DNA of 64,000 nucleotides from a virus: UHGV virus genome UHGV-0113858. One strand, 5' to 3'. Of this stretch, positions 10,809 to 55,228 are shown piece by piece (within the stretch, counting starts at the first letter, position 1; each line of letters starts with the position of its first letter). The notes under the pieces are model-generated. The model was not told the DNA's origin. It searched no databases and saw nothing but the letters and a program-made list of their open reading frames with translations. The translations under genes were made by a program, and so were the position numbers.

Positions 10809-11504
10809 CTAGTGGCAATCGGCCCAGGATCGCCCAGTCAGATATGCCCCTGTGATATGTACAGGACTGCCCATGATACGAGCTGCCTTCTCTACACATC
10901 TTACGACCATTTCACCTACAGGGCAATACTGGATGTGAATTTTACCATCCTCTCCAAAAATACCCTCGTAGACTGTATTGCCTTCCGCATCCTTGACTTT
11001 ATCACCATTTTCATCTTTGACGGCCTTTCTCCACTCATGCCCGTCAAATACGCGGCCTTTTGCTTCCCATTCTTTTACGAAAGCTGTTGCCTCTTCCAGG
11101 GTGTCAAACTCCCACTTCTTCAAGTATTTCTTAGGAACCTGGAGCTGGTATTCATCATGGTAGTAAATCAGGCGACGAACGTCATCATCATACCAGCCAC
11201 GTTTGATCAGTTCCCAGTGAAGCAGGATACCAACCAGATCGAATAGAGATGCACCACCGTTTTGCTGGAAAGCATTCAGAAGAGAGTGCTTAGAACGGGT
11301 CCAAATCTTACGACCATCGAGACCAGGGATATAACGTTTACCCGTTGCTTCCCAGAAGTTTTCAAGCCATTCCTTACGACCTTTCAAACCAAAGTTACTA
11401 TCCCAGAAAGCATCGATTACCGCCTGTGCCTTGTCAAGGGAAATGTGAAGCATTGCTGCAATCTTAGCTGCCTGAGCACCATACATGATCCTAATGTTCG
11501 ACAT
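10809..11504 (-). CDS. family-A DNA polymerase, C-terminal fragment (motif B YG through motif C)
   Basis: MSNIRIMYGAQAAKIAAMLHIS...IPGLDGRKIW...QQNGGASLFDL aligns to the Pol I motif B-C region. An in-frame stop lies 3 codons upstream of its ATG. Confidence 0.75.
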   Translation of the reverse strand: MSNIRIMYGAQAAKIAAMLHISLDKAQAVIDAFWDSNFGLKGRKEWLENFWEATGKRYIPGLDGRKIWTRSKHSLLNAFQQNGGASLFDLVGILLHWELIKRGWYDDDVRRLIYYHDEYQLQVPKKYLKKWEFDTLEEATAFVKEWEAKGRVFDGHEWRKAVKDENGDKVKDAEGNTVYEGIFGEDGKIHIQYCPVGEMVVRCVEKAARIMGSPVHITGAYLTGRSWADCH

Positions 11505-11620: not shown

Positions 11621-12022
11621 TTACCGGATAGTCGTTGGGATTTTACCTCTTGCCAAATACCACTCTTCACCACTACAGTAAAGATTGTTGCAAACAGCAT
11701 GTTCTACATTAGATGCACGGCATGATAATTCTATATTTTCCCAGCAATTATTCAATGTGTTTGCATCTAGGTGGTTGACCTCTTCCTCTTCAAGAAGGTC
11801 TCTACCGACCTTTGCCGCACAAATCAACCTGTGCAACAAATAGTGTTTGCCATTTTTCAAACAGATACGCTGATAAAATTTCTTTCCCTTACCTTTGTGT
11901 AGATAGGGCTTCAACTTTCTTAGTTTTCCACGATTGCTGGAGTATATATTACCTTCGTGGTCACAAAAGTATCCGTTTGATATTGGTATTTTAGCCAAGG
12001 TACTTATCTGCTGATTGTCCAT
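11621..12022 (-). CDS. HNH endonuclease inserted inside the DNA polymerase gene
   Basis: CDHEGNIYSS...HRLICAA...VNHLDANTLNNCWENIE; strong AGGAGG SD upstream. Confidence 0.7.
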   Translation of the reverse strand: MDNQQISTLAKIPISNGYFCDHEGNIYSSNRGKLRKLKPYLHKGKGKKFYQRICLKNGKHYLLHRLICAAKVGRDLLEEEEVNHLDANTLNNCWENIELSCRASNVEHAVCNNLYCSGEEWYLARGKIPTTIR

Positions 12023-12170: not shown

Positions 12171-14210
12171 TTAACCGTAGGTTACCCCTTTACCACCGTT
12201 ACGCGTTACCAGAGTACCAGAAGCTTTGGTGTATGCCTCGGCGTTTCGTGCGTGGGCATCTCCACTTTCCATGATACGGAGGTATTCACCACCATCGAAC
12301 TGATATGCACCCCATGCCGCGATCATACCTTCGAGGTTAGAACCATCGATACCGACCTGGTAATATTCATCGGTAACACCCCAGAGGCCACGCATCTCTT
12401 TACCCAATAACACCTTAGGGTCTGGTTTAGGCATGTTTGCACAGATGGTGTGCTTACAGCGCCCGGTATTGGTGATGCCGGAGAAACGAGCTGGAAGTTT
12501 TCCATCAATCGCCAAACGAGGGTGATTCAACAGCCCTGTGTCGTTTTTGTCCTCGTCAATCGGGTCGAGAACAGAGCGACGGTTACGTAATGACAGCCAC
12601 TTAACAATCTGTTTAGCCAAGTGAACATCAATAACTTCAAGGTTAGGACACAGCTTGCCAAAGTTATCCTTCAACTGTGGTGAAGTCGGCAGTTGACGAG
12701 CTTTGCGTCGGAACTTCTTGAAGATCTCCTCGTAAACACGATCAGAACCATGACGATGGTCGAACTTGTTTTCCGAGATATTGAACTTTGCGTCACTATT
12801 ATTTAAGTGCTCAAGAATCAGAGATTTATACTCGGACTCTCCAAGTTCTTCGATGTACTTACGCACCAGACCATCAACCTCCGCATCATCGCGGGTCTTT
12901 TTGAACTGGTCTTTCGTCACATCTTTAACACGCCAGAGCGTTGGTTTCCATCCCGCATCGCGGATCAGGTACTTCTTGATGTCGTCCTGGTTCGAGATCT
13001 TCATCGGAACCATCAGGTCTGGCATCTTTCCAGCACGAAGATCGGCAATTGCCTTTTCCATTAGGTCTGGTGGCAATGGGACAAGGGTATTCTCTTTCTT
13101 TATCTGGCTTCTAATGAAGTCTGGCATCGCTGCCGGGTCTTCAACACCATTCTGGATACAGTATCTTTCCCCTGCTGCACTTACATCACCGTTACCTTTA
13201 AACGCCGTCTTCGGTGGACCTTTGAATTCCAGTGCTTCACGATTAACTGGATATCCCAGCTTGTATTCTAACCAATTCCACCCGTGATGGGAAATTCTTC
13301 CTGCACCATCAAAAGGATTAGCAGGGAATTTTGGCTGTTGAGACTTCGTCATCTCTTTGAGCGGGAGTTGAGGTTCTACTTCTTCCTCAATCTCTTTCAT
13401 CATTACATCAATACGGTCTCTCAGCTTTTCAGCTTCATGCTTATTGAATGGAACACCCTGAATTTCTTGCTCAATCATCAGGTAATCAGTCAACATACGG
13501 CGGCGTAGCGCGTTCTTCCAGTTGATCTGCCGCATCCCTTCCGGTTTATCTTTGTACATGAACTGCTTGTCATCAGGCCAGCGAGCACCTGTAGATTCAT
13601 CGATCAGGGATTGCCATACTAACTCGTTGATTAAAACGTCTTCCCAGACACGATTAACGTATTCCCACAAGGGTTGGTTACGCCAGTCATCGATCTGAAC
13701 TTTCTTGTTTGCTACACGGTAGCCCCAGGCCAACAGGCCATGAGGACCTACACGATCTCGCTTCCCGGTTACCGGGTTAAGAACAGAGTCAGGGCAACCG
13801 TTAGGTAATGGACGGTCAGGATAAAGCACACGGCTCATAGAGAGGGTGTCGTAGAGATTTACCTGTGTATCCCCAATCGTCCCCATGCACTTCGGGTCTT
13901 TGAACATATCATATTCAATGCCCGATAACTTCTTCCATAGACGCAGGTCATAGCCAAAAAGGTTGTGAATCGCAATGCCGCGAGGCTCCGTTTGCAACCA
14001 AGTGTACAGCTCGTCATAAGAAAGAATCCTAAGGTTAGCCTCTGTCTTGCTACGAGCGTAAGCTACTGCGCTTTCATATTCCGGGTGGTTTGGGTCAAGG
14101 AAGAGGACCCAATTGTTAACACCAAACTCTTTCAGTAGTGTGCAGTGGTACTTTGTAACTTCATCAAGCAGCCCATCTGCTTCATTATCCCCTATAAAAA
14201 GACCTCTCAT
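12171..14210 (-). CDS. family-A DNA polymerase, N-terminal fragment (3'-5' exonuclease plus polymerase up to motif B)
   Basis: The Exo I-like FIGDNEADGL lies near the N-terminus. The fragment ends ...TRNGGKGVTYG*, just where motif B (RxxxKxxxFGxxYG) would be. The remainder is encoded at 10809..11504. Confidence 0.8.
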   Translation of the reverse strand: MRGLFIGDNEADGLLDEVTKYHCTLLKEFGVNNWVLFLDPNHPEYESAVAYARSKTEANLRILSYDELYTWLQTEPRGIAIHNLFGYDLRLWKKLSGIEYDMFKDPKCMGTIGDTQVNLYDTLSMSRVLYPDRPLPNGCPDSVLNPVTGKRDRVGPHGLLAWGYRVANKKVQIDDWRNQPLWEYVNRVWEDVLINELVWQSLIDESTGARWPDDKQFMYKDKPEGMRQINWKNALRRRMLTDYLMIEQEIQGVPFNKHEAEKLRDRIDVMMKEIEEEVEPQLPLKEMTKSQQPKFPANPFDGAGRISHHGWNWLEYKLGYPVNREALEFKGPPKTAFKGNGDVSAAGERYCIQNGVEDPAAMPDFIRSQIKKENTLVPLPPDLMEKAIADLRAGKMPDLMVPMKISNQDDIKKYLIRDAGWKPTLWRVKDVTKDQFKKTRDDAEVDGLVRKYIEELGESEYKSLILEHLNNSDAKFNISENKFDHRHGSDRVYEEIFKKFRRKARQLPTSPQLKDNFGKLCPNLEVIDVHLAKQIVKWLSLRNRRSVLDPIDEDKNDTGLLNHPRLAIDGKLPARFSGITNTGRCKHTICANMPKPDPKVLLGKEMRGLWGVTDEYYQVGIDGSNLEGMIAAWGAYQFDGGEYLRIMESGDAHARNAEAYTKASGTLVTRNGGKGVTYG

Positions 14211-36858: not shown

Positions 36859-36868
36859 CCTATAATAA

Positions 36869-36897
36869 GGCCATCGTAACTGATGGCCTTTTTTCTT
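36869..36897 (+). terminator. rho-independent terminator
   Basis: GGCCATC-GTAACT-GATGGCC followed by TTTTTTCTT. Confidence 0.7.
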
Positions 36898-36907
36898 GGA
36901 GATAAGA

Positions 36908-38335
36908 ATGTATACAGATGAAAAAGAAAGCATTATGGAACTGGCTGATGAAGCACTGAAGAAAGTTCAGTCTGCCCGCATCGCTTTACTTACTAATCGA
37001 CCATTCTACGGGACGCTATTAAGCGGTATGCCGCTGATAGTTGACTGTGCATGGCTTCCAACCGCAGCGACTGATCATCGCAACCTATACTTTAACCCAG
37101 AGTTCATTATGGGTATGCCTGTTGATCGCAAGAAAAAGGTTTTTGCTCGTATTGACAAGCACCCGATGATGACACAACAGCAAAAAGATGAATATAAAGA
37201 ATATGTTGATGTCTTCTATCGTCAAAAAACCATGAAGGAAATTGTATTTATTCTAATGCATGAGGTCCGCCATGTTACCAACGACCACATGTCTCGTGGG
37301 AAAACATTTGACCGTAGACGTTTCAATATCGCAGCCGATCACTATATCAACACCGACCTGGTCAAGGAGTTGGGCCAGAAAGCCGAGAGTTTGAAATGGT
37401 TCACTCATCGGCAAGTCTTTGATAAGACAAAAGAATTTGGATTCCTTGCTTACTGCTATTGTGACTATCAGTACGAGGGGAAAACGGCTGAAGAGATTTA
37501 TGCTCTGTTGCCGGATGAGGTTGGTGATGGTAAAGGTAAGCCGCTGGGGGCGCACATCGGGGATTATGATAAAGACCTGGACATCCTGGGGTATACGGAC
37601 CCACACCCACAGAAGTCTGCTGATCAGGAAGATGAGGATATGTCTTGGTCTGAGGACATGATTGACGCTGCTATGAAAGCCGCAGGTGGTGAAGGACCGA
37701 AAGAAGCCAGAGAATTAATCGCACAAAAAGGTAAACCGAAGATTAATTACCTGCAAATAATTAAGCAACGAATGATTTCTCGTGTTAAATCTGATCGTAC
37801 TTACCGGGTCTTAGGTCGTCGATCAGGGGGGATGACAAAAGTCCTTCGTGATCACGGCGCTCTAACTAAGAGACAGTTCATGGTTATGCCTGGCAGAAAA
37901 AGAACAGAGACTGTTGATATTGTAATCGGTTTTGACGTTTCAGGTTCTATCTCTCGTCAAACAATGACGCGTATTTTCAATGAGATAATCGCTTTGAGCA
38001 CCCTGTACCAATGTTTCCGTATCACATTGTTCTGTTGGTCAACCCAAGTTGGCAACGTCAACGTGTACACACAGGACAATATAAAGGAAATTCTGGATTA
38101 CAGAGTTACATCAACTGGTGGAACAACTGCCGCATGTGCATTTGAGTACATCGATGAGTTTATTCCTAAGGCAAAAGAGGTTATAATCTTCACAGATGGT
38201 TACATAGAGGACCTGAGACATCGTGGCGCAAGCTGGGGGCGTAAGTACAACACTCTCTGGGTTATCTGCGGTGGGCGCAAGGGTTGGTTAGCTCCTTTTG
38301 GGAAGGCGGTAGATTTGGATGAGCACTTTAAATAA
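36908..38335 (+). CDS. DUF2201-type protein: N-terminal HExxH metallopeptidase-like domain plus C-terminal VWA domain (MoxR partner)
   Basis: FILMHEVRHVTNDH carries HExxH. VWA MIDAS motif DIVIGFDVSGSISRQTM (DxSGS). The start was chosen at MYTDEKES after a GGAGATAAGA SD; the track ATG at 36896 lies inside the terminator. Confidence 0.75.
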   Translation: MYTDEKESIMELADEALKKVQSARIALLTNRPFYGTLLSGMPLIVDCAWLPTAATDHRNLYFNPEFIMGMPVDRKKKVFARIDKHPMMTQQQKDEYKEYVDVFYRQKTMKEIVFILMHEVRHVTNDHMSRGKTFDRRRFNIAADHYINTDLVKELGQKAESLKWFTHRQVFDKTKEFGFLAYCYCDYQYEGKTAEEIYALLPDEVGDGKGKPLGAHIGDYDKDLDILGYTDPHPQKSADQEDEDMSWSEDMIDAAMKAAGGEGPKEARELIAQKGKPKINYLQIIKQRMISRVKSDRTYRVLGRRSGGMTKVLRDHGALTKRQFMVMPGRKRTETVDIVIGFDVSGSISRQTMTRIFNEIIALSTLYQCFRITLFCWSTQVGNVNVYTQDNIKEILDYRVTSTGGTTAACAFEYIDEFIPKAKEVIIFTDGYIEDLRHRGASWGRKYNTLWVICGGRKGWLAPFGKAVDLDEHFK

Positions 38336-38726
38336 GAAAGTTGTCCACAATTTGGATTTTGAGATTTACTTGATGGGGCTTGGTTGTTGTCTCATTGTGA
38401 ACTTTGAAGTACAAAATGGTCATGATCTGACTGGCTATAGGTATGACATTTTCTGTAACAGGAAGATTGTCGAGGTATATGGTGCCGGAGAAGGTGGTGA
38501 GAGGGAGATTATCATTTCCAGGGATTTCACGGATGATCCCCTCCACATCACAGAAGAAGAGCTTAGTCTGGTCGAAGTTATGATGACACACTTGTCGCCA
38601 TTCGAGAGAAGTTTGCACAAACTTGGATGTGATCTGGCTGTTCTTCACCATAATGATGCATCTCAAGAGTATGCCCAAGAGGTTGTTAAAAATCACTTGA
38701 ATAATTATCTGGAGGTAGAAACATGA
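38319..38726 (+). CDS. hypothetical protein (135 aa)
   Basis: ORF track. Confidence 0.45.
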   Translation: MSTLNKKVVHNLDFEIYLMGLGCCLIVNFEVQNGHDLTGYRYDIFCNRKIVEVYGAGEGGEREIIISRDFTDDPLHITEEELSLVEVMMTHLSPFERSLHKLGCDLAVLHHNDASQEYAQEVVKNHLNNYLEVET

Positions 38727-39019
38727 GAATCTCTAAGAGTTTCAGTGTTTTATGCTCTTATGGGATGATATCCAATCTGAAGTTATCTTCAACGGATATC
38801 CGCATTTACCTGTACTTGAAATTCAGGTGGCAGTTCTTTCACAGCAAAGGCTCAGAGTTTTGTGAATCAACCACCACTATCTCTGAAGAGGTTGGTGTTT
38901 CTGAAAGGACTGTTCGTCGGTCTATGGAGAAATTAGAAGAGTTGGGATACCTAGAGGTAGTCAACCGACCAGGAAAAACCAGCCTGTATATCACCAAAGA
39001 TGAGGTGGCTATTAAGTAA
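38723..39019 (+). CDS. winged-helix/HTH DNA-binding protein (98 aa)
   Basis: ISEEVGVSERTVRRSMEKLEELGYLEV is a helix-turn-helix. Confidence 0.5.
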   Translation: MRISKSFSVLCSYGMISNLKLSSTDIRIYLYLKFRWQFFHSKGSEFCESTTTISEEVGVSERTVRRSMEKLEELGYLEVVNRPGKTSLYITKDEVAIK

Positions 39020-39290
39020 CCAACCCCGGACACTGGTGACCGGACACCCCGGACATGGATGACCTACGACATAATAAAGAATAAAACAATAAAGATAATA
39101 AAACATAAAACATAGATCTTTATAAAAAGATCTTGATCTATGGTTTAGTTAGTGTATAGTTAGTTTCAAGAGGAAGTGATGAATCACTTCAGTCATCCAT
39201 AAGTGGATTAGCCATAAGCTAACCCGTTTACGGGTGTTAGATGTGTGTGGAAGTGCAATGTGTTCGGAGCCACGGGCGACAGGAGCTTCT
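39020..39290. repeat. non-coding repeat-rich region (CCGGACA x3, AATAAA-type A/T repeats, 8-bp stem hairpin AGATCTTT/AAAGATCT, TAGTTAGT repeats)
   Basis: Read directly; there is no ORF, and it lies immediately downstream of the HTH gene. Confidence 0.5.
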
Positions 39291-39292
39291 AA

Positions 39293-39544
39293 ATGCGACG
39301 ATTAACTGGGGGCGGCGCGAGCCGTACTGAGATGGAAGTTATAAAACTACGAAAAACGTGGAATAACCTTGTTGGTGGAAGACGAGGTACGGTAAAAATG
39401 CATTTGGTAGCCAGCTTTATTGACCAAGGTCAACACGTTGCAACATATCGTTGGTGGTCAAGAAAATATGGCTGGCAATATGAGACCAAACCTGCATACC
39501 TTTATGCACAGACATGGCGGCTAATGGAAAAATGGAATGACTAA
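39293..39544 (+). CDS. hypothetical protein (start uncertain; possibly the internal MHLVASF after a GAGGTACGGTAAAA SD)
   Basis: ORF track. Confidence 0.35.
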   Translation: MRRLTGGGASRTEMEVIKLRKTWNNLVGGRRGTVKMHLVASFIDQGQHVATYRWWSRKYGWQYETKPAYLYAQTWRLMEKWND

Positions 39545-39610
39545 ACAACAAGCTTGGACACTTGACAAGGGCATAGAAGCACTAGATTCAACCCTAAACA
39601 AGGATAAAAA

Positions 39611-39871
39611 ATGAAAACGATCCGTATCCGTCAACACCGTGGTGGCCTGTTGGAAAGCAAACAAACAGAGAAAGAAATTCCTGCCACCAAAGAAGCTGTG
39701 CTTGAATACGTTGTAGATTCTGGTATGATTATGACTATGCTTCCTCTGGGAGCTGATGATGTTGTAGTTGTGCCTTACTATGAAGATGGTAAGGACAGGA
39801 TTTATATGGTGAAGATATTCTCTATGCCCTTCGGCTTCATCGAAACTGTTGGAAATTTAACACTTAACTAA
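39611..39871 (+). CDS. hypothetical protein (86 aa)
   Basis: AAGGATAAAAA SD. Confidence 0.45.
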   Translation: MKTIRIRQHRGGLLESKQTEKEIPATKEAVLEYVVDSGMIMTMLPLGADDVVVVPYYEDGKDRIYMVKIFSMPFGFIETVGNLTLN

Positions 39872-39896
39872 AGTTATCTTAAGAGGAGATTACAAA

Positions 39897-40541
39897 ATGG
39901 GTTCATGGCCTTTTCTGATTTATGTGATTGATGTTCTGACCACAGACGGTAATTATGGTGGTTGGGTTGCTCTGATGCTTATCTCTGCTCTCGCATACGC
40001 CGCCTGCTATTGCGGTCAGAAGATTTATGAAGACCTTGAGAAGAATGGTACAGCCTTAGGGTATCAGTTCTTCGAAGGTGAAAATCTGGTTCTTAACCAA
40101 GACTGGAGTGGATATAAGGCCGGGGATACGATTGAAATCGTTACGGTATGGAACAGTGATAATACGCTTCGAGTTCGCTTGCCGAATGGAAGGGTCTCCA
40201 GCAACGATATTAAGCAGTCCACAATTTACAAAGTAACCCGGAAGGAAGGCCAATCAACAACACCTGTTGTGGTAAAGGATGTTACCAAAGGCCCACGTAA
40301 GATCGCAGTCTTTGGCATGGTGATCTGCTTCATTGGTATCCTGTATGCTAACTTTATGCCTCAGAAAGAAACTGCGTATAAAATGCTGGCAGCGTATGTA
40401 GGTCAGAATGTGGTTGAGTCACCACGTACACAACAACTGGCTGATAGCACCATTAAGTATCTTGATGCTCAAATCAAGAAATATACTGAAGAGTTGGATG
40501 CAGCCGCCAAAACAAAAGAAGAGAAAAAGGAGTCTAAATGA
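39897..40541 (+). CDS. two-TM membrane protein (214 aa)
   Basis: TM1 WVALMLISALAYAACY and TM2 IAVFGMVICFIGILYANF, with a Lys/Glu-rich C-terminus. Confidence 0.55.
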   Translation: MGSWPFLIYVIDVLTTDGNYGGWVALMLISALAYAACYCGQKIYEDLEKNGTALGYQFFEGENLVLNQDWSGYKAGDTIEIVTVWNSDNTLRVRLPNGRVSSNDIKQSTIYKVTRKEGQSTTPVVVKDVTKGPRKIAVFGMVICFIGILYANFMPQKETAYKMLAAYVGQNVVESPRTQQLADSTIKYLDAQIKKYTEELDAAAKTKEEKKESK

Positions 40542-40873
40542 CAGGAATCACTGAACGCGTACTCCAGTCCTCGGTTCGGGCGCAAGCCCGTTCTGTCCCC
40601 TCTGTCATGATGAATTTGGTAGAGGAAGTCGGGGAACTGGCACGAGCACTTAATCGTCCTTATCGCTGTGACGAGCCATCAATTGCAGAAATTGCAGATG
40701 TTATCAACTGTGCAGTCGACCTTGCATACATGTTGGAGATTCAAGAATATCTCAGCCCTCGCGTGTATGACCCCAAAGATATTGCAGAGACCGTGAAGCG
40801 TCGTCTTGAATACTTTGTTGACAAGAAGTGCGATAAGTGGGACAGTATCGTAAAGAAGCTGGAGGAAAAGTGA
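40538..40873 (+). CDS. MazG-like nucleotide pyrophosphohydrolase
   Basis: NLVEEVGELARAL (EExGEL core) and a second helix, IAEIADVINCAVDLAYMLEI. Confidence 0.6.
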   Translation: MTGITERVLQSSVRAQARSVPSVMMNLVEEVGELARALNRPYRCDEPSIAEIADVINCAVDLAYMLEIQEYLSPRVYDPKDIAETVKRRLEYFVDKKCDKWDSIVKKLEEK

Positions 40874-41073
40874 AAACTGACTTTCTTGGCAATAATCTTG
40901 CAATTGGTGATAAGGTTGCATTCACAGAGGGTGGCTACAAAAACATGTTACTTGGAGAGGTTATTGGGTTCACAAAGACCACAATCAAGATAAAGCATCT
41001 TTCAAAGCCCCGCTTTGATCATCGTGAGTTTTGTAACCGCGAGCCAGCTTATGTAGTATTGGTGGGTAAATGA
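40870..41073 (+). CDS. hypothetical protein (67 aa, GTG start)
   Basis: GGAGGAAAA SD followed by GTG, which overlaps the MazG stop. Confidence 0.4.
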   Translation: MKTDFLGNNLAIGDKVAFTEGGYKNMLLGEVIGFTKTTIKIKHLSKPRFDHREFCNREPAYVVLVGK

Positions 41074-41414
41074 AACCATTTGAAAGTAAGCGAATAGCCC
41101 TTGACTTCGATGATACCTTTACCCTCGACCCTGAACGCTGGGCTGAGTTTGTCCACCTGTTCTGTTCTCGTGGTTCTGGTTGGTCAGTGAAGTTTGTTAC
41201 CTTCAGGTATGAAACGGATCGCAATGAAGACATCGAATACTGGTCTGAGAAACTTGGCATTGACATCATCTACTGTGGTGGTGTACAAAAGGCTACGGCT
41301 TGTGCTAAAGCGGGTTGGGTTCCTGATATCTGGATAGATGACTTCCCAGTGCTGATCCCAATGAAACAGCAACTCCAGGGTATGATCCTTGGTATTGAAA
41401 AGAATGGAGGATAA
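41070..41414 (+). CDS. small HAD-like protein (DxDxT motif)
   Basis: IALDFDDTFT at the N-terminus; 114 aa. Confidence 0.45.
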   Translation: MKPFESKRIALDFDDTFTLDPERWAEFVHLFCSRGSGWSVKFVTFRYETDRNEDIEYWSEKLGIDIIYCGGVQKATACAKAGWVPDIWIDDFPVLIPMKQQLQGMILGIEKNGG

Positions 41415-41417
41415 TTT

Positions 41418-41747
41418 ATGAAATTCGAAGAATGGTTATCGCAACAAGATGGCATTATCGAGGTGGATTGCGGCTGTGTTACCATGGAAGCTTTTTATCA
41501 CTGGCTACGTATGGCTTATGTAGCTGGGAACTCTCCGGCAATTCCAGAGGGGTACGTGATGGTGCCGAAGGTTCCAAGTCAAGCCCACCTGAACAGCATA
41601 GCTATGCGCTACCGTCACGATTTCTATTTGCTTAACGATGCGCAGAAAGATATCGCCCTTGCTACCGCCAGGCAGATGTATGAGGAATGTAGTGGGCAGG
41701 GATTCTATACGCTGCCAGCCGTCCCGCAGGAGGTGAGGCATGGCTAA
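41418..41747 (+). CDS. hypothetical protein (109 aa)
   Basis: GGAGGATAATTT SD. Confidence 0.45.
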   Translation: MKFEEWLSQQDGIIEVDCGCVTMEAFYHWLRMAYVAGNSPAIPEGYVMVPKVPSQAHLNSIAMRYRHDFYLLNDAQKDIALATARQMYEECSGQGFYTLPAVPQEVRHG

Positions 41748-42150
41748 GTTAGGAAAGCGTGGATATCCAGCACTATACCTGAAGGGCAGTAATGCTTGGT
41801 ATACCGGGTATGCCCATGACTGGAAAATGGAAGATAAGGTGGATGTTTCCGATCGTCATGAAATTCGCGAGCTGAAACTCCAGTACACTGGATTCAGTCG
41901 TGGTCGTTCTGCTGCGAATATTGAAATGGTCGATCAAGACGGGAACAAGTTCCTGATGTCAATGTCTGGGTTTGATTTGTTGATGAAAATAGCCGATGCA
42001 CCAGCAAGTGTCAAAAGAGCAGAAAAGCTTCGCGGATATGATATCCTCCGTAGCACCCATCATGGTGGTTCCGGTGTCTGGTACGTTGGTTCATTTTGTC
42101 AAACAAAACAAGGTCAGAACTATTTTATTGAACCTGTGGAGGTGAGATGA
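41740..42150 (+). CDS. hypothetical protein (136 aa)
   Basis: ORF track. Confidence 0.5.
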   Translation: MAKLGKRGYPALYLKGSNAWYTGYAHDWKMEDKVDVSDRHEIRELKLQYTGFSRGRSAANIEMVDQDGNKFLMSMSGFDLLMKIADAPASVKRAEKLRGYDILRSTHHGGSGVWYVGSFCQTKQGQNYFIEPVEVR

Positions 42151-42308
42151 TGAGCTTAGAAAAACGATCTAAATATTTGGTTTTCAAGTTCTGGGAGATC
42201 CTGTATGATGTCTGCTACTTTGTATTTGGTAATCTTCCGGTTACTTACGATGTCAAACACAAGATGAATATGGCGTATATGCGCTACCAAATGAAACGTG
42301 ACTGAAAA
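42150..42308 (+). CDS. micro-protein (52 aa)
   Basis: GGAGGTGAG SD then ATGATG; not in the track. Confidence 0.3.
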
Positions 42309-42432
42309 AACAGATGCTATGATACCCCGTATGATGCGTAGAAACGCCGTGGCGGGGTTTTTAGCACATAAGGTAGGCAAACGTACTGCCTTTTCATAAA
42401 ACCCCTCAGGATTGATTACAGGACGCTACACG

Positions 42433-43248
42433 ATGACTACTATCTTAAACACTCTCGAACTTATCCCCCATAACAAGGTTAGTTATGATTTTCCTAACGT
42501 GCGCGGCGACCTTGAAAGGCTTTACCTTGATGCAGTATATGCCCTTGGTGGTGTAGAATTCTCTACTGACGAGACTGATGAGAGGACTTTCAATCAGGCC
42601 AAGGCCAGCGTGGAAAGTGTGCTTGATGACCTTAAGCAATACGCTACAGGTTCAGAGGTTGAAGGGCTTCTCGATTATGCAAAAGACACTGAACGTGCCT
42701 TTGTTGAAAGAGGTGAGTATGTACTCAATGCCATGCGGCGCATGAACAAGTTCAGTAAGGATATCTTAGATATCGACAATACTTGGAACAGAGAAGACAT
42801 TGCAAATGGTGTTGCCTGGATCGCAGAGCAACTGGGTGAGATGTTTGATGGAGGATCCCATATACGGTACATGATGCAGAATCGAGGATGGCGAGACCTG
42901 TATCTTGATTACCTCGTGAACCTTGTCGGTAACCCGGTAGTAGAGGTGCTTGCACATTATTCTTCTGCTCATGATTTGGTGTATGGTGTCGATGGTCGTA
43001 TCAAGATTGCTGATAATACCGTTACACTTATGAATGGCCCTACTTCCTTGGTCCTTTCTCCTATTCCCGGTGATATGCGTATTGTTTACACAGTCCCAGG
43101 AAAGACAGAACGGTTCCTGATTTCTGTATTGAGCACATTTTTCATTGACATTTGTAATCCGACTCCAGATGAGGTTCAAATGTATGAAATTTCTACAGGC
43201 ACAACCTATGATATTATTAAATGGAAGGATATTTTCAATCCAAGATAA
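42433..43248 (+). CDS. hypothetical protein (about 271 aa)
   Basis: Start chosen at MTTILNTLE; this is the last gene before the repeat region. Confidence 0.55.
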   Translation: MTTILNTLELIPHNKVSYDFPNVRGDLERLYLDAVYALGGVEFSTDETDERTFNQAKASVESVLDDLKQYATGSEVEGLLDYAKDTERAFVERGEYVLNAMRRMNKFSKDILDIDNTWNREDIANGVAWIAEQLGEMFDGGSHIRYMMQNRGWRDLYLDYLVNLVGNPVVEVLAHYSSAHDLVYGVDGRIKIADNTVTLMNGPTSLVLSPIPGDMRIVYTVPGKTERFLISVLSTFFIDICNPTPDEVQMYEISTGTTYDIIKWKDIFNPR

Positions 43249-43523
43249 GATTCAAAACTGTGGGATATTTGTACGATATTTAATATCCCAAAGATATTTT
43301 AAAATTCGAAATGGTTTTCAAAATCGTTTTTGAAACGGATTTCATCTTACCTGCAAATTTTTAAATAAAGAGTTTTGGGAGTAGATTATCTCAAACCTTT
43401 GTGGAAGCTATGTCGAAAAATGATGCACAAGTGTATGATTGCTATAGGTATCTTGGCATCAAGATTGGACATTTATCTCAAATAGGCGAAAAAGATATCT
43501 CAAATTTTCAGGTAGAAAACTCT

Positions 43524-43740
43524 GGGTTCTCGATCGACTTTTCGTTTTCAAAAACGTATTTGCTCTCACTATCAAAAAATTTTTCTCTATATCAACCGGG
43601 TTCTCGATCGGTTTTTCAAAATCGAGATCGTAATTGTTTTTTCTCTAGAAAAAATTTTTCGGCCCGGTTCTCGATCGAGATCTCAATTTCCAGATCGTAT
43701 TTGTTTTCTTACGCGAAAAAATTTTTTAGGGGTATCGCTC
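43524..43740. repeat. three tandem copies of a degenerate 70-bp unit (GGTTCTCGATCG ... CGTATTTGTTTTCT ... AAAAAATTTTT)
   Basis: GGGTTCTCGATCG occurs at 43524, 43598 and 43665. Each unit carries an A6T5 tract. ATCTCAAA repeats lie upstream. Confidence 0.6.
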
Positions 43741-43787
43741 AGTATCTCACATGAAAAATCAGAAGTCAATATTTAAATTTTTTGTTG

Positions 43788-43835
43788 AATGAGAAGCATT
43801 CTTATTTAGTTATTTGAATGATAATCATTCTCATT
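43788..43835. promoter_or_regulatory. two adjacent Fur-box-like palindromes
   Basis: AATGAGAAGCATTCTTATT and AATGATAATCATTCTCATT; compare the Fur box GATAATGATAATCATTATC. Confidence 0.4.
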
Positions 43836-44065
43836 TGCTGAATGACAGGCACCCCCGGTGTTTTGTACTCCGGTTTCAATGTTCCCGCTATGTGTATAAT
43901 ATAGGATACACGGCCCCATGTTGCAAGCGTCTTTACAATTCTTTACAAATAGACTTTAGGCGAGCTACCGGCGATCCACCTTCCAACCAGGTCTCCGCGC
44001 CTGGTATGTTAGCCCCGCCTTTCCGCCGTGGGGTGGCGTCTCTTCTCCTGTCTGATAAATATAAC

Positions 44066-44108
44066 CCAAGCCGGGGCCGTTTGCAAGCCCCGCGATAAAA
44101 TATTTTTA
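44066..44108. repeat. about 43-bp hairpin-containing element (copy A)
   Basis: CCAAGCCGGGGCCGTTTGCAAGCCCCGCGATAAAATATTTTTA; related copy at 44334..44374. Confidence 0.45.
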
Positions 44109-44291
44109 CTCCCAGGAGTCCGCGATCACTTCTCCATTTTCCGCAACAATTCTCACCCTGGTAAATCCTGAATTATACATTTTCAACGCAAAGGGTAAAG
44201 GCACGATCCTAACCTGGGGCGCTGCGCTTTCCGTCTCCCAGGTGGAAAGGGTAACCATTGTTTCACTCGTTATTACTTTTGCGTTTTCCAT
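44106..44291 (-). CDS. small protein (61 aa) on the minus strand inside the plus block
   Basis: It carries the same AAAGGTAAAC SD as the plus-strand cassette genes, and is flanked by the direct repeat copies A and B. Confidence 0.35.
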   Translation of the reverse strand: MENAKVITSETMVTLSTWETESAAPQVRIVPLPFALKMYNSGFTRVRIVAENGEVIADSWE

Positions 44292-44333
44292 TTCGTTTAC
44301 CTTTATTTGTTGGCGTCCTTATATAGTACACTA

Positions 44334-44374
44334 ACCAGGCCGGGGCGCAAGCCCACACGAACAAAAATATTTTT
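44334..44374. repeat. about 41-bp hairpin-containing element (copy B)
   Basis: CCAGGCCGGGGCGCAAGCCCACACGAACAAAAATATTTTTA. Confidence 0.45.
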
Positions 44375-44395
44375 AATTTATTTTCATCCAGGGTA

Positions 44396-44424
44396 TTGAC
44401 GCGGGGATCACTATCACTTAATAT
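44396..44424 (+). promoter_or_regulatory. sigma70 promoter with about 150-nt structured leader
   Basis: TTGACG, 17-nt spacer, TAATAT. The leader contains CCGGGG...CCCCCGG hairpins. Confidence 0.5.
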
Positions 44425-44579
44425 TCATTTCACCGGGGCGGGGTGAATCCAAGGCCCCCGGTTGAAATAGTGGGGCGTGGAGTAAAGCGCAAGCGATGAG
44501 GATTCAATCTGGCCCGGAAAGGTGAGGATCTCCAAAATCCAGGGCAAAACAAAATTACATCTACTGAAGAGGCTACAAC

Positions 44580-44747
44580 ATGAAAAACATTTCTTTTACT
44601 ACCCGTGACCAGGCCCGCGCTTTTACCCGTAATGTTAACAGCAAGGTAACCACGGCGGCGCGTTTACGTCAACCTGTTAAAGATGGCGCCGGGCAATGGG
44701 TTATCCCTGGAATTAACCACGGTAAAACCTTATCCCTGGCTAAATAA
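44580..44747 (+). CDS. small basic protein (55 aa)
   Basis: GAAGAGGCTACAAC SD; product MKNISFTTRDQARAF...; not in the track. Confidence 0.4.
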   Translation: MKNISFTTRDQARAFTRNVNSKVTTAARLRQPVKDGAGQWVIPGINHGKTLSLAK

Positions 44748-45972: not shown

Positions 45973-46002
45973 TTGACACCAGGCCCGGAAAGGGCCTATA
46001 AT
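45973..46002 (+). promoter_or_regulatory. consensus sigma70 promoter with hairpin in the spacer
   Basis: TTGACA, 18-nt spacer CCAGGCCCGGAAAGGGCC, TATAAT. Confidence 0.6.
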
Positions 46003-46045
46003 TACCAGGCACCAACAAACTAAACACTAAACGAGGTAAAATATC

Positions 46046-46558
46046 ATGGGCTGGACTGGCATTTATTCTAATCTTAATAACAAAAAATTTGTTGAAAATT
46101 ATCTGACTGATAACCGCGTGATCGAAACTTCTGTTGTAGGCAATGAAGTTTATCAACTTGCAAGGGCGAGGGATGAAAGTCTTTACATTCGTGTAACAAT
46201 TCTTTCCCGTAAAGATGGTATGGTTTTTTATAAGGATATGGATGAATCTTGCGGCCCGTGTTATTACAACTGTCCTGAAAAATTCCTTAAGCTATCCACG
46301 CAAAAAGATGAATTTTCCGTTAATTGGCGCGCCGCTTGCCGTCAACATGCTAAATACAAAAAAGAGCAGAAAGCATTGATTGATCGGATCAAGATCCTGA
46401 AAAATGGTGATCGCGTGGAAATGATATCCGGGCGCGTGGTAGTCTTTGAGTTCCCCCATAACCGCGCCCGATTTGCTGGACGTCTGGCGGACGTTGCACC
46501 AGGTAAACAAAATTCTCTTTTTGCATGGTCTTATAAAGACGTTGCAAAGATTCTTTAA
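46046..46558 (+). CDS. hypothetical protein (170 aa)
   Basis: ACGAGGTAAAATATC SD. Confidence 0.55.
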   Translation: MGWTGIYSNLNNKKFVENYLTDNRVIETSVVGNEVYQLARARDESLYIRVTILSRKDGMVFYKDMDESCGPCYYNCPEKFLKLSTQKDEFSVNWRAACRQHAKYKKEQKALIDRIKILKNGDRVEMISGRVVVFEFPHNRARFAGRLADVAPGKQNSLFAWSYKDVAKIL

Positions 46559-46617
46559 ACCGCTATACTGATTAAAGCCGGGGAATTGTCCCCGGCATAA
46601 CCTAAAAGGTAAACAAA

Positions 46618-46995
46618 ATGGCCTACATGAATAAAGAGAAGAAAGCGAAAATTGTTGAAGCAGTGAAAGCTGTATTGCCAAAAGGCTGGAAAGCAACATT
46701 TGCGATCCGTCACTATTCAACTATTGTTTGCACTATCCGATCCGCGCCGCTGGATCTCAAAGATGCCTTTCATCGTACCCGTGATGATTGGGATTTTCTA
46801 ACGATTAATACCTATCACGCTGAAAAGCAATGTAAGAATAAAGATATCGCCGATAAATTAGAAAAAATCATTGCAGCGTTAAATCTTGATAATTACGATA
46901 ACAGCGATATAATGACAGATTATTTTGATGTCGGTCATTATGTAGATCTTAAGTTCGGATCATGGGATAAGCCATTTAAAAACAGCGCTGCGTAA
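46618..46995 (+). CDS. hypothetical protein (125 aa)
   Basis: Promoter TTGCAA-16-TATACT, 5' hairpin GCCGGGGAATTGTCCCCGGC, AAAAGGTAAACAAA SD. Confidence 0.55.
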   Translation: MAYMNKEKKAKIVEAVKAVLPKGWKATFAIRHYSTIVCTIRSAPLDLKDAFHRTRDDWDFLTINTYHAEKQCKNKDIADKLEKIIAALNLDNYDNSDIMTDYFDVGHYVDLKFGSWDKPFKNSAA

Positions 46996-46996
46996 T

Positions 46997-47359
46997 ATGA
47001 AAGAATTGTTGATTCTACTCATATTTTGTTATTATGCAAAAATACACGCCAGATCCTGGCGTGTTATAAAATGGTTTTACTACTGGTACAGGGTTAAAAC
47101 AATGTTCCACTATATAGAATATCGCTTCCAGGGGGAGGATTACCACACCAGGCGATCCGGGCCGTTGAATGATCTGGAGGGTAGCGGCCTGATATGTGAG
47201 ATTAAACACCGGGGCGGCGTGGTCCTGGTACATAAAGAGGGATCCTTCGACTACATCGAAGAGCTGATCGAATATCGCAAAAAACAGATCGCGGAATGGC
47301 GATCGGAAACATACAACCACAGGGGATCAAGATATGACAGCAAAAAGCCGCAACTTTGA
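46997..47359 (+). CDS. hypothetical protein (120 aa)
   Basis: TAATATG overlap with the upstream stop. Confidence 0.5.
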   Translation: MKELLILLIFCYYAKIHARSWRVIKWFYYWYRVKTMFHYIEYRFQGEDYHTRRSGPLNDLEGSGLICEIKHRGGVVLVHKEGSFDYIEELIEYRKKQIAEWRSETYNHRGSRYDSKKPQL

Positions 47360-47549
47360 GAAGATGACAAGCCAGCGCGATCGCCTTGCTTTTGGTGAGA
47401 CTAACGAGCGGCGCGAGCGTAACAATAAACGGCATAAGCCGGAACGGATCGCGGTTCAATGGTCGCCGGACCAGTATGATCCGAAGTTGAATAAACGCCT
47501 TGCGGATCGTAAACGTAATTTGCAGCGATACGCCGTAGCAGGTGAATAA
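47334..47549 (+). CDS. basic hypothetical protein (71 aa)
   Basis: ORF track. Confidence 0.4.
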   Translation: MTAKSRNFEKMTSQRDRLAFGETNERRERNNKRHKPERIAVQWSPDQYDPKLNKRLADRKRNLQRYAVAGE

Positions 47550-47553
47550 CCAG

Positions 47554-47580
47554 GCCGGGGATAATTCCCCGGCTTTTTTA
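47554..47580 (+). terminator. rho-independent terminator
   Basis: GCCGGGG-ATAATT-CCCCGGC followed by TTTTTT. Confidence 0.7.
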
Positions 47581-47608
47581 TGCAAAATAGTGAATATGGC
47601 GAGATCTC
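47578..47608. repeat. 31-bp box TTATGCAAAATAGTGAATATGGCGAGATCTC (copy 1)
   Basis: Identical to the copy at 51312..51342. Each copy precedes a 250-300 bp gene-free stretch. Confidence 0.6.
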
Positions 47609-47882
47609 AGCGCAGCAATGCACTTACCAGGGTTACACATTGAAGCGCTTAGAATCGATTTGAGGGCGTTTTAGATGGTATCCGATAACCGCGCCCCGCT
47701 CAAAACGCCGAAAATTTAGTTACCGGTTGAAACTAATTGCATAACAGCGATTTTCTATGCACATCACTGCATATGAGAACAGTTCTCAACAATTCTTAAA
47801 AATATTTGTTGCATCCTGGCGGCGTTATGCTATCCTTTAATCAGTGGCGGAATTCACCGCCACACTGAAAAAGGTAAACACT

Positions 47883-48059
47883 ATGGAAAAGCAAAACATG
47901 TATAAAACGGCCTATAGTTCTGAATTTTGTTGTTATGTTGGGATTAATCGCGCTTGGAAAGATTCAAATGGTAAATGGATTTTTGAGTGCTCAAATGTGG
48001 CAAAGGGCCTGGATAACTTCCTTTTTCGTGAGTCAGAACTAGAAAAATTTTGTCTTTAA
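47883..48059 (+). CDS. small protein (about 58 aa)
   Basis: Start at MEKQNMYK after an AAAAGGTAAACACT SD. The longer track ORF begins upstream at a weaker site. Confidence 0.45.
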   Translation: MEKQNMYKTAYSSEFCCYVGINRAWKDSNGKWIFECSNVAKGLDNFLFRESELEKFCL

Positions 48060-48062
48060 TTG

Positions 48063-48091
48063 TTGACAAGCCAAGTCAAAAGGCCTATTAT
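48063..48091 (+). promoter_or_regulatory. sigma70 promoter
   Basis: TTGACA, 17-nt spacer, TATTAT, then 5' hairpin GGCGGGAATAGGTCCCGCC. Confidence 0.55.
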
Positions 48092-48139
48092 TCTCAATAA
48101 GGCGGGAATAGGTCCCGCCACCAGCTGGAAGGTAAAGAT

Positions 48140-48391
48140 ATGACAATTGTAAATGAAATCAAAAAACCTGGTATCGTTATTCGTGATATCTCCTCGGATT
48201 TTGGGGACGGAACTTATGACGTGTTGATCACGGATGAAAAAGGTAATTGCAGGTACTCACCCGAAGTTTTTAACACGGCAGAAAGCGCCGAAAAATATGC
48301 TCTTGCTGTTAATGATTTTTCTTGGTGGGATCAATACTTTAACAGTAAAGAGGCGGCCAGTGTCTGGGAATTGGTTAAACGCGTAAAATAA
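48140..48391 (+). CDS. hypothetical protein (83 aa)
   Basis: GGAAGGTAAAGAT SD. Confidence 0.5.
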   Translation: MTIVNEIKKPGIVIRDISSDFGDGTYDVLITDEKGNCRYSPEVFNTAESAEKYALAVNDFSWWDQYFNSKEAASVWELVKRVK

Positions 48392-48394
48392 CAG

Positions 48395-48424
48395 TTGACA
48401 CTGGTTAATGTGTGGGATTATACT
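48395..48424 (+). promoter_or_regulatory. sigma70 promoter
   Basis: TTGACA, 17-18 nt spacer, TTATAC/TATACT. Confidence 0.45.
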
Positions 48425-48469
48425 TCCTACACATTGACAAGTGAAACAATTAACCAAAAGGTAAACAAC

Positions 48470-48754
48470 ATGCAAAACGTAAAATCTAACATCGCCGATC
48501 TTGAATCAAAATTCCTGGGTAAAATGGTGTATCATAACTATGGTCAAATCGCTTTTGGCGTGGTAACCGGAATCGATGATCGCGATCCCAATAAATTACG
48601 TTTACGCGTGAAGTTTACCCGCAACAATACTCCGGCGCATATCAAAAAATATGACAACCGCGCGGATCGTGTTCGTTGCTTACTCCCTCAATCTGTTACC
48701 GTGTCCCGTGTTCAATATGGGATCTATAATCAGACAAACCAGATCAACAAATAA
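48470..48754 (+). CDS. hypothetical protein (about 94 aa)
   Basis: Start at MQNVKSNI after a CAAAAGGTAAACAAC SD. Confidence 0.5.
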   Translation: MQNVKSNIADLESKFLGKMVYHNYGQIAFGVVTGIDDRDPNKLRLRVKFTRNNTPAHIKKYDNRADRVRCLLPQSVTVSRVQYGIYNQTNQINK

Positions 48755-48792
48755 TCATTAACGGGGCTTTGCGCCCCATTAAGGCGGCTAAC

Positions 48793-49011
48793 ATGTTCGG
48801 ATTTATTATATTGGCTTGTCATATTTCTGTTAGTTCGATGGCATTACAATGTGATTGGAATGTTAAAAAAACATTCCCCACGGAACAGGCTTGCAACGTG
48901 TACGAAAACGAATACACGTTAGGCAAAGGCGAGCAGATTGGGATCTGCGATGAGTTAGATCCCGGCGTTAAAGAAGGCGATAAGCGCCCTATTCTCACCC
49001 TCAAAAAGTAA
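48793..49011 (+). CDS. small secreted Cys-containing protein
   Basis: 5' hairpin GGGGCTTTGCGCCCC; signal-like MFGFIILACHISVSSMA. Confidence 0.45.
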   Translation: MFGFIILACHISVSSMALQCDWNVKKTFPTEQACNVYENEYTLGKGEQIGICDELDPGVKEGDKRPILTLKK

Positions 49012-49021
49012 GGTAACGATC

Positions 49022-49225
49022 ATGTTTGAAGTATTCGCGGGTATGTGCTTTTATGGTGCGCTGGCTTTAAAACAGTGTGATGATTATGTAGTAGAAAGCT
49101 ATGATGATCAATTGACTTGCGAGATCGTCGCCGTTGACTATCAGCGCCAGGGGCGCTGGATTAATCCGGCCTGCATACCATCGCCGGAAGTCGAACCGAT
49201 GCCGGAAAGCAAAAATAATTATTGA
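49022..49225 (+). CDS. small secreted Cys-containing protein (67 aa)
   Basis: AAGGTAACGATC SD; N-terminus MFEVFAGMCFYGALALKQC. Confidence 0.45.
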   Translation: MFEVFAGMCFYGALALKQCDDYVVESYDDQLTCEIVAVDYQRQGRWINPACIPSPEVEPMPESKNNY

Positions 49226-49250
49226 TCCCCCGGCCCGGTTAGGTTATATT
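49222..49250 (+). promoter_or_regulatory. sigma70 promoter with GC-rich spacer
   Basis: TTGATC, 17-nt spacer CCCCGGCCCGGTTAGGT, TATATT. Confidence 0.5.
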
Positions 49251-49296
49251 ACTTGGACCGGGCAAGATTGGCCCACTAACAAAAAGGTAAAATAGT

Positions 49297-49620: not shown

Positions 49621-49727
49621 TTGAGAAAATTAATCTGAAAAGTCGCTTGCAAACGTGAGCGACTTTTATTATATTTAATGCACAGGGCGGCAATGGTGCG
49701 ACGGCCCAAAAATCGAGGTAAAACAGA

Positions 49728-50498: not shown

Positions 50499-50547
50499 TG
50501 TACACCAGGCCCCGGATCGCCGGGGCAACTTTTACTGGTAAATGCAA

Positions 50548-54614: not shown

Positions 54615-55209
54615 CGTCGTCTCATTCACAAAACAACCCTAAAACATGAATAATCACACATGAAACTATCACCACAGTAACAGTCACACCATGTAATGAC
54701 CTGAAGCGGCTGGCCTATGCGTCGCACTGGTAACATTGGGGCATTATTAGCTTGCTATGTGTTGTTATCTAGTGCGTATAACGTGTTTTATGTTAAATGG
54801 CGTAATTCATATAAATATAAACAAGTCAATAGCAAATCGTGCTCTAAGCTGGCAAACCATATGCTTGCTATGTATCACACACAATTATTATTAGTTTCGG
54901 CAAGTAACTATCATGTCTGAGGAGGCCCCGAGGAACCGGGAACCGGATCGACCTTGCCCATGATATTTTGTAAAGATCCGTAAAAATAGTTGACGCCCGG
55001 AGCTGTCCGTCTAGCACCTCAGACAGTGCGAATGCTCCAAAACACCCAGACAGATATTTTTCGGCAAGTGATATTTTCGGCAGGGGGCATGTTTTGATTT
55101 CCCCACGGGGGAAGGGGTGGTTATACGGGGAAAACAGGGGCCTGTTTACGGTATCGACATATCGGGGAGTCCCTTCAGATTGTGTGTTAATGAAATGAGT
55201 ACGTAGTAC

Positions 55210-55228
55210 AATGAGAATCATTCTCATT
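55210..55228. promoter_or_regulatory. Fur-box-like perfect palindrome
   Basis: AATGAGAATCATTCTCATT, 19-bp dyad. Confidence 0.4.

Follow-up and report, generated by a model that had tools for sequence, protein, structure and literature searches.

We describe here an 857-bp non-coding gap at positions 43249–44105 of a 64,000-nucleotide stretch of viral DNA (UHGV virus genome UHGV-0113858, hereafter the window), which comes from an rV5-like Klebsiella phage (Vequintavirinae, genus Mydovirus) and which between 42400 and 45700 is 96–97% identical to phages KpS11, KB57 and Mydo. The whole gap is one composite cis-acting DNA control region, and from its sequence the best reading of it is a phage replication origin, although that reading is unproven and we rate it somewhat below an even chance. 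The gap is far better conserved than the adjacent genes across two subfamilies, and for this reason we regard it as a real control region and as the best available origin candidate. A first-pass annotation of the window had already proposed an iteron-like origin at 43250–43760. The features it listed are found there, but the element runs ~350 bp further to the right, to 44105, and this overlooked right half of the gap, which carries palindromes, a hairpin-bearing core and predicted leftward promoters, is the better conserved of the two.

A sensitive search matched the right part of the gap to hundreds of records from the Vequintavirinae and the Stephanstirmvirinae, at 72–85% identity. When identity to phages 4MG, SSE121, TH18 and CR3 was profiled in 100-bp steps, the gene upstream of the gap gave 34–55% nucleotide identity, values rose to 59–87% over 43512–44111, and they fell again in the downstream gene. 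The exception was the bin at 43712–43811, with 49% identity to TH18 and 44% to CR3. The 278-aa protein encoded upstream is 26–37% identical between genera. The locus is therefore common to two subfamilies whose neighbouring proteins have diverged to ~30% identity, which indicates that it must matter. An ordinary intergenic spacer between converging transcription units, with repeats that are neutral products of slippage, could also be AT-rich and lie at the end of a plus-strand operon, as this gap does. However, the conservation is greatly above that of the neighbouring genes, the repeat array predates the splits between genera and its geometry is kept across two subfamilies (see below), so that a spacer is a very improbable explanation.

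The left half of the gap is dominated by three tandem repeat units (Table 1). A repeat search shows them to be 69–78% identical and spaced by 74 and then 67 bp, rather than by the uniform 70 bp first proposed, and Tandem Repeats Finder (TRF) reports part of them as a period-67 array (43599–43726, score 165, 78% matches). Each unit contains box A (GGTTCTCGATCG), a CGTAWTTG box and an A6T5 tract, and holds two GATCG-type boxes ~20 bp apart, with box B (GATCGTATT) ~20 bp downstream of box A. The internal motifs are less uniform than had been described, since the TCGATCGA palindrome is complete in units 1 and 3 but appears as TCGATCGG in unit 2, and the CGTATTTG segment likewise reads CGTAATTG in unit 2. 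Box A occurs exactly three times in the window, always in the array, and three times in the complete 142,987-bp genome of KB57, all at the same locus, which lies at 125.4–126.3 kb there. It is absent elsewhere in the genome and is therefore not a general promoter element. The A6T5 tracts proposed as bend sites are likewise concentrated here: the window contains nine matches of the GAAAAAATTTTT type where 1.1 are expected, and six of the nine fall within the three units. Six GATC sites within 162 bp of the array form a moderate cluster.

Comparison between genera shows that the geometry of this array is conserved. Copies of box A lie 63–78 bp apart in all of the Vequintavirinae genera that were examined (Mydovirus, Seunavirus, Certrevirus, TH18-like phages, a Serratia phage and rV5). 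The spacing is ~75 and then 67 bp in Mydovirus, Seunavirus and TH18, 78 and then 63 bp in Certrevirus, and 66 and then 65 bp in the Serratia phage. There are three copies in each of these lineages apart from rV5, in which two copies, separated by 65 bp, are clear and the third is weaker. An unbiased scan of all lags returned 65–67 and 74–76 bp as the top two in most lineages, including three members of the Stephanstirmvirinae, and the positions at which the units start, ~440, 365 and 297 bp from the core of the right half, recur across the Vequintavirinae genera and the Stephanstirmvirinae.

Within this conserved frame the sequence differs between lineages. Most of them have CTCGATCG as box A, but in Henunavirus and W70 every copy reads CTTGAGAGG, with the T-rich spacer kept; the A6T5 tracts are kept in Henunavirus as well. 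In the Stephanstirmvirinae the units are of unrelated sequence (AATTATTTAAAGTTTTT). Unit 2 of the phage studied here is 85% identical to unit 2 of 4MG and only 68–76% identical to its own neighbouring units, indicating that the array arose before the genera split and that its units are not being homogenised. Inverted repeats within the units lack a conserved register. A conserved number, spacing and position of units, combined with a lineage-wide swap of the recognition sequence, is what would be expected of iterons whose binding protein is encoded by the phage and evolves along with them. The comparison thus bears out the iteron-like behaviour first suspected, in that the array is single-copy, is under purifying selection far above that on the genes beside it, keeps its copy number and spacing across two subfamilies and changes in all of its copies together, and we suggest that a phage protein of this kind would bind it.

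Another reading of the array is that the 117-aa open reading frame (ORF) spanning it is a real repeat protein and that the DNA repeats are merely its coding sequence. The frame is indeed open, stop-free frames of 91–129 codons occur in several relatives, and the product is listed as a hypothetical protein in some records and has its own PHROG family (phrog_25933). Yet no codon position is favoured by substitutions (36/36/30 against 4MG, 40/33/38 against SSE121, 46/43/41 against TH18 and 51/44/56 against a fourth relative), and alignments to relatives contain indels of 1, 2 and 4 nt that shift the frame. Several frames on both strands are open simultaneously across this region, the start codon is GTG and the product has no Pfam match. 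The repeat offsets of 74 and 67 bp also place the DNA copies in three different reading frames, which argues that what is conserved is the nucleotide sequence. The Mydo record annotates the ORF (CPT_Mydo_054) without a ribosome-binding site, which other Mydo genes have, and it is unannotated in 4MG and in the RefSeq record of KB57. We therefore rejected the repeat protein, as codon-position bias is lacking and the reading frame is broken in relatives, and consider it the least probable of all the explanations weighed here. The first-pass annotation had also judged the ORF to be a low-complexity echo of the DNA repeat.

Table 1. Features of the gap at 43249–44105 and of its right-hand neighbour. 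Positions are those of the window.
Feature	Position	Strand	Description
Three phased GATATTT boxes	43258..43303	.	GGGATATTT, CGATATTT, AGATATTTT; about one helical turn apart
12-mer repeats	43305..43343	.	TTCAAAATCGTT, 2.2 copies (TRF); also an imperfect hairpin
Three TATCTCAAA boxes	43387, 43474, 43496 (span 43387..43504)	+	To the left of the repeat units
117-aa open frame	43401..43754	+	Not a gene; GTG start
Repeat unit 1	43522..43585	+	Box A GGTTCTCGATCG, T-rich spacer, box B AACGTATTTG, A6T5 tract
Repeat unit 2	43596..43659	+	Box A, inverted repeat TCTCGAT/ATCGAGA, box B GATCGTAATTG, A6T5 tract
Repeat unit 3	43663..43726	+	Box A, GAGATCTC palindrome, box B GATCGTATTTG, A6T5 tract
P1 promoter-like site	43741..43769	-	TTGACT, 17-nt spacer, TGaGATACT (extended -10), A/T-rich upstream; points left into the repeats
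Fur-box-like palindromes	43786..43846	.	TGAATGAGAAGCATTC, TGAATGATAATCATTC and half-site GAATGAC; start-to-start 29 and 24 bp
Short hairpin	43850..43890	.	CCGG...CCGG around loop motif GGTG(A/T)TTGTCTC; motif in nearly all relatives, arms vary
P2 promoter-like site	43898..43926	-	TTGCAA, 17-nt spacer, TATATT; points left
Tandem TCTTTACAA boxes	43930..43948	+	10 bp apart (TRF); conserved in both subfamilies
Core	43957..44048	.	GC-rich, ~90 bp, highly conserved; hairpin H1 and candidate helices
P3 promoter-like site	44058..44086	-	TTGCAA, 17-nt spacer, TATATT, A/T-rich upstream; predicted start near 44051
Small gene	44106..44291	-	61 aa, DUF7170 (Pfam PF23776, E 2e-25); reads leftward toward the gap

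To the left of the units the DNA is unusually easy to melt. The gap is the most AT-rich part of the window at 1-kb resolution (GC 0.361), with a GC content of 0.31–0.35 across the gap itself, and when nearest-neighbour duplex stability is computed over 200–400 bp, the minimum for the window falls at 43176–43375 and 43119–43518, the first of these having a value ~4 standard deviations above the mean. This stretch carries three sets of short boxes (Table 1). The three TATCTCAAA boxes, which had been noted as preceding the units, are the sole copies in the window and the only three in the whole KB57 genome, and three boxes of this type are found at similar offsets in 4MG, in the Erwinia phage pEp_SNUABM_01 (Henunavirus) and in Phapecoctavirus anhysbys. 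Two hairpins had also been described, and both exist. However, the first (43258–43269 with 43282–43293, 12-bp arms, 92% complementary) is a by-product of the phased GATATTT boxes, two of which are inverted in this phage; in relatives the boxes are direct repeats without a hairpin, and they keep an 11–12 bp spacing in 4MG, CR3, CB7, TH18, Mydo and rV5. The second has arms at 43308–43323 and 43328–43343 that are 81% complementary and coincides with the 12-mer repeats, homologues of which (AAATCGTTTTCA and GAAATGGTTTT repeats) occur in Mydo, SSE121 and 4MG.

The right half of the gap contains three sites that resemble sigma-70 promoters and that all point left, toward the array, with predicted minus-strand starts near 44051 (P3), 43891 (P2) and 43734 (P1). 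P3 is the best conserved, since a strong minus-strand site scoring 9.5–12.5 out of 12.5 is present in 15/15 lineages while its spacer sequence varies; it is a perfect TTGACA-17-TATAAT in TH18, and the best plus-strand site in the same interval scores 5.5–8.5. The minus-strand hexamers of P2 are conserved in most lineages, again with variable spacers, and in every lineage P2 scores at least as high as the best plus-strand site of its interval. Equivalents of P1 are found in 4MG, NINP13076, TH18 and ChuuTotoro and are absent from Certrevirus and the Stephanstirmvirinae. A single consensus DnaA box (TTATACACA, 43891–43899, minus strand) overlaps the -10 hexamer of P2. This box is identical in CR3 and CB7, and one base shorter (TTATCACA) in 4MG and the Erwinia phage.

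Between P2 and P1, and not over the promoter hexamers, lie palindromes that resemble Fur boxes. Relatives in both subfamilies carry them as arrays of 1–5 copies (TRF period 29). The palindromes match the 19-bp enterobacterial consensus GATAATGATAATCATTATC at 14–16 of 19 positions, the one at 43814 matching the E. coli Fur consensus at 15/19, and the window holds 14 sites with at least 14/19 matches where 3.2 are expected. They differ from usual Fur operators in that none overlaps the -35 or -10 element of a recognisable promoter, and the putative binder may be phage-encoded; the recurrence of the same palindrome sequence across subfamilies would be in keeping with a factor of the host more than with a phage protein that co-evolves with its site. 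Palindromes of this type (AATGAGAATCATT) cluster in two non-coding regions of the window, with further copies at 51277, 54028–54052, 54445–54470, 54561–54614 and 55207–55231.

The ~90-bp core between P2 and P3 has a mean column identity of 83% over 24 distinct sequences from the two subfamilies. Its hairpin H1 pairs 43984–43991 with 44000–44008 around a loop of variable length, and two further candidate helices, CCCC/GGGG (44013–44016 with 44030–44033) and CGCC/GGCG (44024–44027 with 44035–44038), are predicted. The H1 loop has indels of 1, 2, 4, 5, 6 and 8 nt, of which those of 1, 2, 4, 5 and 8 nt shift the frame, and these indels exclude the core as a small protein. A 37-codon minus-strand frame in the core was also discarded, since 4MG does not preserve it. 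After the CGCC...GGCG hairpin the plus strand has a pyrimidine- or T-rich run (within 44034–44050), which reads TTTTCTCTTC in 4MG and TTTTGTTACTG in the Erwinia phage, and the pair could form a plus-strand terminator placed back to back with the start of P3.

These features raise the main rival to an origin, namely that the gap is a non-coding RNA or transcription-control locus with no role in replication. P3, P2 and P1 would then yield a structured core RNA together with a repeat-containing RNA (~480 nt from P1), and the repeats and boxes would serve as RNA motifs or operators, for example in host takeover or counter-defence. The conservation of the minus-strand sigma-70 hexamers amid variable spacers is in keeping with this, as is the small syntenic gene that reads in the same direction just upstream, and the module of palindrome, hairpin and promoter recurs at 55.2 kb. 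H1 also shows compensatory change around its variable loop: its pair 29–51 is AU in 13 sequences and GC in 11, with none unpaired, and 92% of cells pair as against 38–47% with slid partners. The candidate helix CCCC/GGGG becomes CCAA/TTGG in the Erwinia phage. Other results speak against an RNA locus. The core is conserved mostly as primary sequence rather than as covarying pairs, the helices other than H1 being nearly invariant; its folding is no better than that of shuffled sequence (z -1.1 and -0.5), and RNAalifold gave no strong consensus on either strand. For the gap, Rfam gave no match at the gathering threshold when the whole window was searched, and in E-value mode (E ≤ 10) no hit over 43200–44400 scored meaningfully. 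P1 is missing from Certrevirus and the Stephanstirmvirinae even though they keep the three-unit array, and the inverted repeats in the units are out of register between lineages. Since box A changes in concert across the copies of a lineage, a DNA-binding protein fits the array better than an RNA fold does. We regard the RNA locus as a possible but rather unlikely account of the gap as a whole.

In the origin reading, a phage-encoded sequence-specific protein would bind the three units through box A, box B and the A6T5 bending tract and would assemble them into a nucleoprotein complex of fixed geometry, set by the spacings of ~75 and 67 bp. The strands would open in the flanking AT-rich DNA that carries the GATATTT, 12-mer and TATCTCAAA boxes, where the duplex is least stable. 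Host RNA polymerase would start at the predicted leftward promoters P3 and P2, joined by P1 in some genera, and would transcribe toward and through the array, and the transcript might then provide transcriptional activation, an RNA primer or both, as at T4 oriE and oriF, the T7 primary origin and lambda ori. This transcription might be gated by the palindromes of Fur-box type that lie between P2 and P1. The single-copy conserved array, the low duplex stability, the GATC cluster and the predicted promoters aimed into the AT-rich array are all consistent with an origin, as is the presence 4.2 kb upstream of a gene with an initiator-type winged-helix domain.

On paper the locus resembles several known origins. 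T4 is likewise a large lytic enterobacterial myovirus that draws early on host sigma-70 RNA polymerase, and both phages show promoters, predicted ones in the present case, reading into an AT-rich, easily melted stretch with direct repeats at the origin or its candidate. T4 oriE combines a cluster of iterons with early-promoter transcripts and needs RepEB, and at oriF and oriG a promoter is followed by a DNA-unwinding element and an R-loop serves as primer. However, the oriE iterons are ~12 nt long whereas the composite units here are 64–75 bp and share no sequence similarity with them, and no homologue of repEA or repEB was recognised beside the locus. With lambda ori and the iteron plasmids (pSC101, R6K and P1 oriR) the gap shares single-copy direct repeats with an internal dyad (TCGATCGA), bending tracts, clustered GATC sites, an encoded initiator-type winged-helix protein and, as at iteron origins generally, an adjacent AT-rich region that would suit an unwinding element. 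Lambda also depends on nearby transcription, for which the candidate leftward promoters may be the counterpart. As at the T7 primary origin and ColE1 RNA II, promoters, here predicted, lie upstream of an AT-rich region and the transcript would enter the initiation site, and the distance of ~325–530 nt from P3 to the array is similar to the promoter-to-origin distance of ColE1. Unlike in those systems, the transcribed core is not markedly G-rich, and with a GC skew of +0.16 on the leftward RNA strand, which is unremarkable, an R-loop-prone G-rich transcript was rejected.

Several observations weigh against an origin. Classical iterons are 17–22 bp long, present in 4–7 copies and as a rule located within the initiator gene or beside it, whereas this array has three units of 64–75 bp, three- to fourfold that length, with the initiator-like gene 4.2 kb away. 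Host-factor sites are nearly absent, the gap containing no IHF consensus site, no oriC-type 13-mer and only the one DnaA box. The locus is not adjacent to the polymerase/helicase module. GC skew is ~+0.13 to the left of the locus and ~+0.05 to the right, the opposite of the bacterial origin rule, and the cumulative skew of the whole KB57 genome tracks gene orientation only. In the rV5 genome paper, skew analysis picked up nothing but the direction of transcription (PMC3606486). A regulatory or non-coding RNA locus that is transcribed would show this anatomy too, and the origin role is that of a candidate. In the literature we found no description of this locus or of a replication origin in rV5-type phages. 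As a separate observation, the two skew values belong to blocks of plus-strand genes (36000–43000 and 46000–53000) transcribed in the same direction, and the drop across the locus could reflect gene class or expression level rather than replication.

The identity of the binding protein is a further difficulty for the origin reading. The first-pass annotation had nominated the helix-turn-helix (HTH) protein encoded at 38723..39019, which is 98 aa long and of the HTH_36 type, and whose match to phrog_8102 (E 1e-34, profile positions 12–112 of 337) covers the N-terminal DNA-binding part of 'replication initiation protein' families. It does not co-vary with the repeats, however. Two variants only ~37% identical accompany identical repeat units, and the protein was undetected in Certrevirus, rV5 and the Stephanstirmvirinae, all of which keep the array. 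This weakens the nomination and leaves the protein a weak candidate for the array binder. The two variants circulate among Mydovirus genomes that are otherwise 95–97% identical, which suggests cassette exchange. In the 278-aa neighbour no domain was recognised, its AlphaFold model is unusable (predicted local distance difference test, pLDDT, 40), searches found only close homologues and a PDB profile search gave nothing.

We also considered that the array may be an architectural DNA site of another sort, for instance a partition site akin to a centromere, a site linked to packaging, or one to which a phage protein binds to organise or silence the genome. The large tandem repeats with their palindromes recall the centromeres of plasmids, among them F sopC with its 43-bp units, and the fixed geometry and A-tracts suggest a wrapped nucleoprotein complex. 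Against this, it is not obvious why a strictly lytic phage would need partition, no ParB- or SopB-like gene was seen adjoining the locus, and in KB57 ~68 kb separate it from the terminase gene. Circular permutation is the rule in this phage group, which is not known to have fixed ends near the locus. For CB7, a BAL-31 test of genomic DNA is named in the title of a supplementary figure (PMC7344957). We judge such a site to be improbable. The pseudo-ToxI antitoxin repeats of phiTE were examined as a possible counterpart of the array and rejected on position and sequence: the phiTE escape locus is at 106,714–106,772 (PMC3475682) whereas the homologue of the gap region in phiTE is at 39,675–39,819, and the 36-nt ToxI unit is unrelated.

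The gap occupies a junction in the genome, as first described. A long plus-strand operon that lacks strong internal promoters comes to its end here, with the gene for the 278-aa protein (42412..43248) as the left neighbour, and an array of promoter-driven small early genes begins. On the right is the gene for a 61-aa DUF7170 protein (Table 1), and a small minus-strand gene occupies this position in most relatives. The AlphaFold model of the protein has a pLDDT of 85, and a PDB fold search with it gave no match at E ≤ 0.001. Beyond this gene, 44320–44425 resembles a divergent promoter region. It holds a P3-like minus-strand module upstream of the 61-aa gene (an A/T-rich stretch, GGGC-TTGCGC, a GC-rich spacer and TATATA/ACTATA) and a plus-strand TTGACG-17-TAATAT at 44396–44424 that is followed by a GC-rich leader of ~150 nt and the gene 44580..44747. 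A search for tRNA and tmRNA genes found none. Captured copies of the locus were absent from 5,426 E. coli genomes, and the sole 'plasmid' match was a 137.6-kb record that is suspected to be an rV5-like phage.

A second region poor in annotated genes lies at 54000–55330, where the plus-strand early array reaches its far end, and has motifs in common with the gap. It contains palindromes at 54454, 54561 and 54602, a TTGTAAAGA pair at 54968–54986, which is a weaker copy of the tandem TCTTTACAA boxes, and GATATTT boxes near 55054 and 55070. At 55207–55330 a palindrome and a GGTGATTGT hairpin are followed by a P2-like minus-strand promoter, the palindrome and loop motif of the gap recurring at 55207–55260. 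The three-unit array and the core are lacking. A 119-aa ORF (54868..55227) that covers part of this region may be spurious. Elsewhere in the window, Rfam identified a group I intron on the minus strand at 11541–12182 (RF00028, 66 bits, E 1.4e-14), located between the minus-strand ORFs 10809..11504 and 12171..14210 and with the ORF 11621..12022 inside it.

In its most specific form, the model would have Fur, the iron sensor of the host, bind the conserved palindromes and gate transcription that runs leftward from the universally conserved promoters through a structured core RNA into the three large lineage-specific units, as a previously undescribed composite module of the Vequintavirinae and Stephanstirmvirinae. 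We hold this form to be distinctly unlikely. Were it true, phage replication or a key early switch would be coupled to the iron status of the host, and the ~90-nt core would be a new conserved RNA or DNA structural element. A more immediate consequence concerns annotation, as the spurious 117-aa ORF is an error that is spreading through GenBank records and has acquired a PHROG family of its own. The rV5-like and phAPEC8-like phages are among the coliphages and Klebsiella phages of broadest host range and are widely considered for therapy, and for them the locus provides a precise, testable origin candidate of ~600–850 bp with a parts list. Should it prove not to be an origin, it would still be true that no other non-coding DNA found in the window is as strongly conserved.

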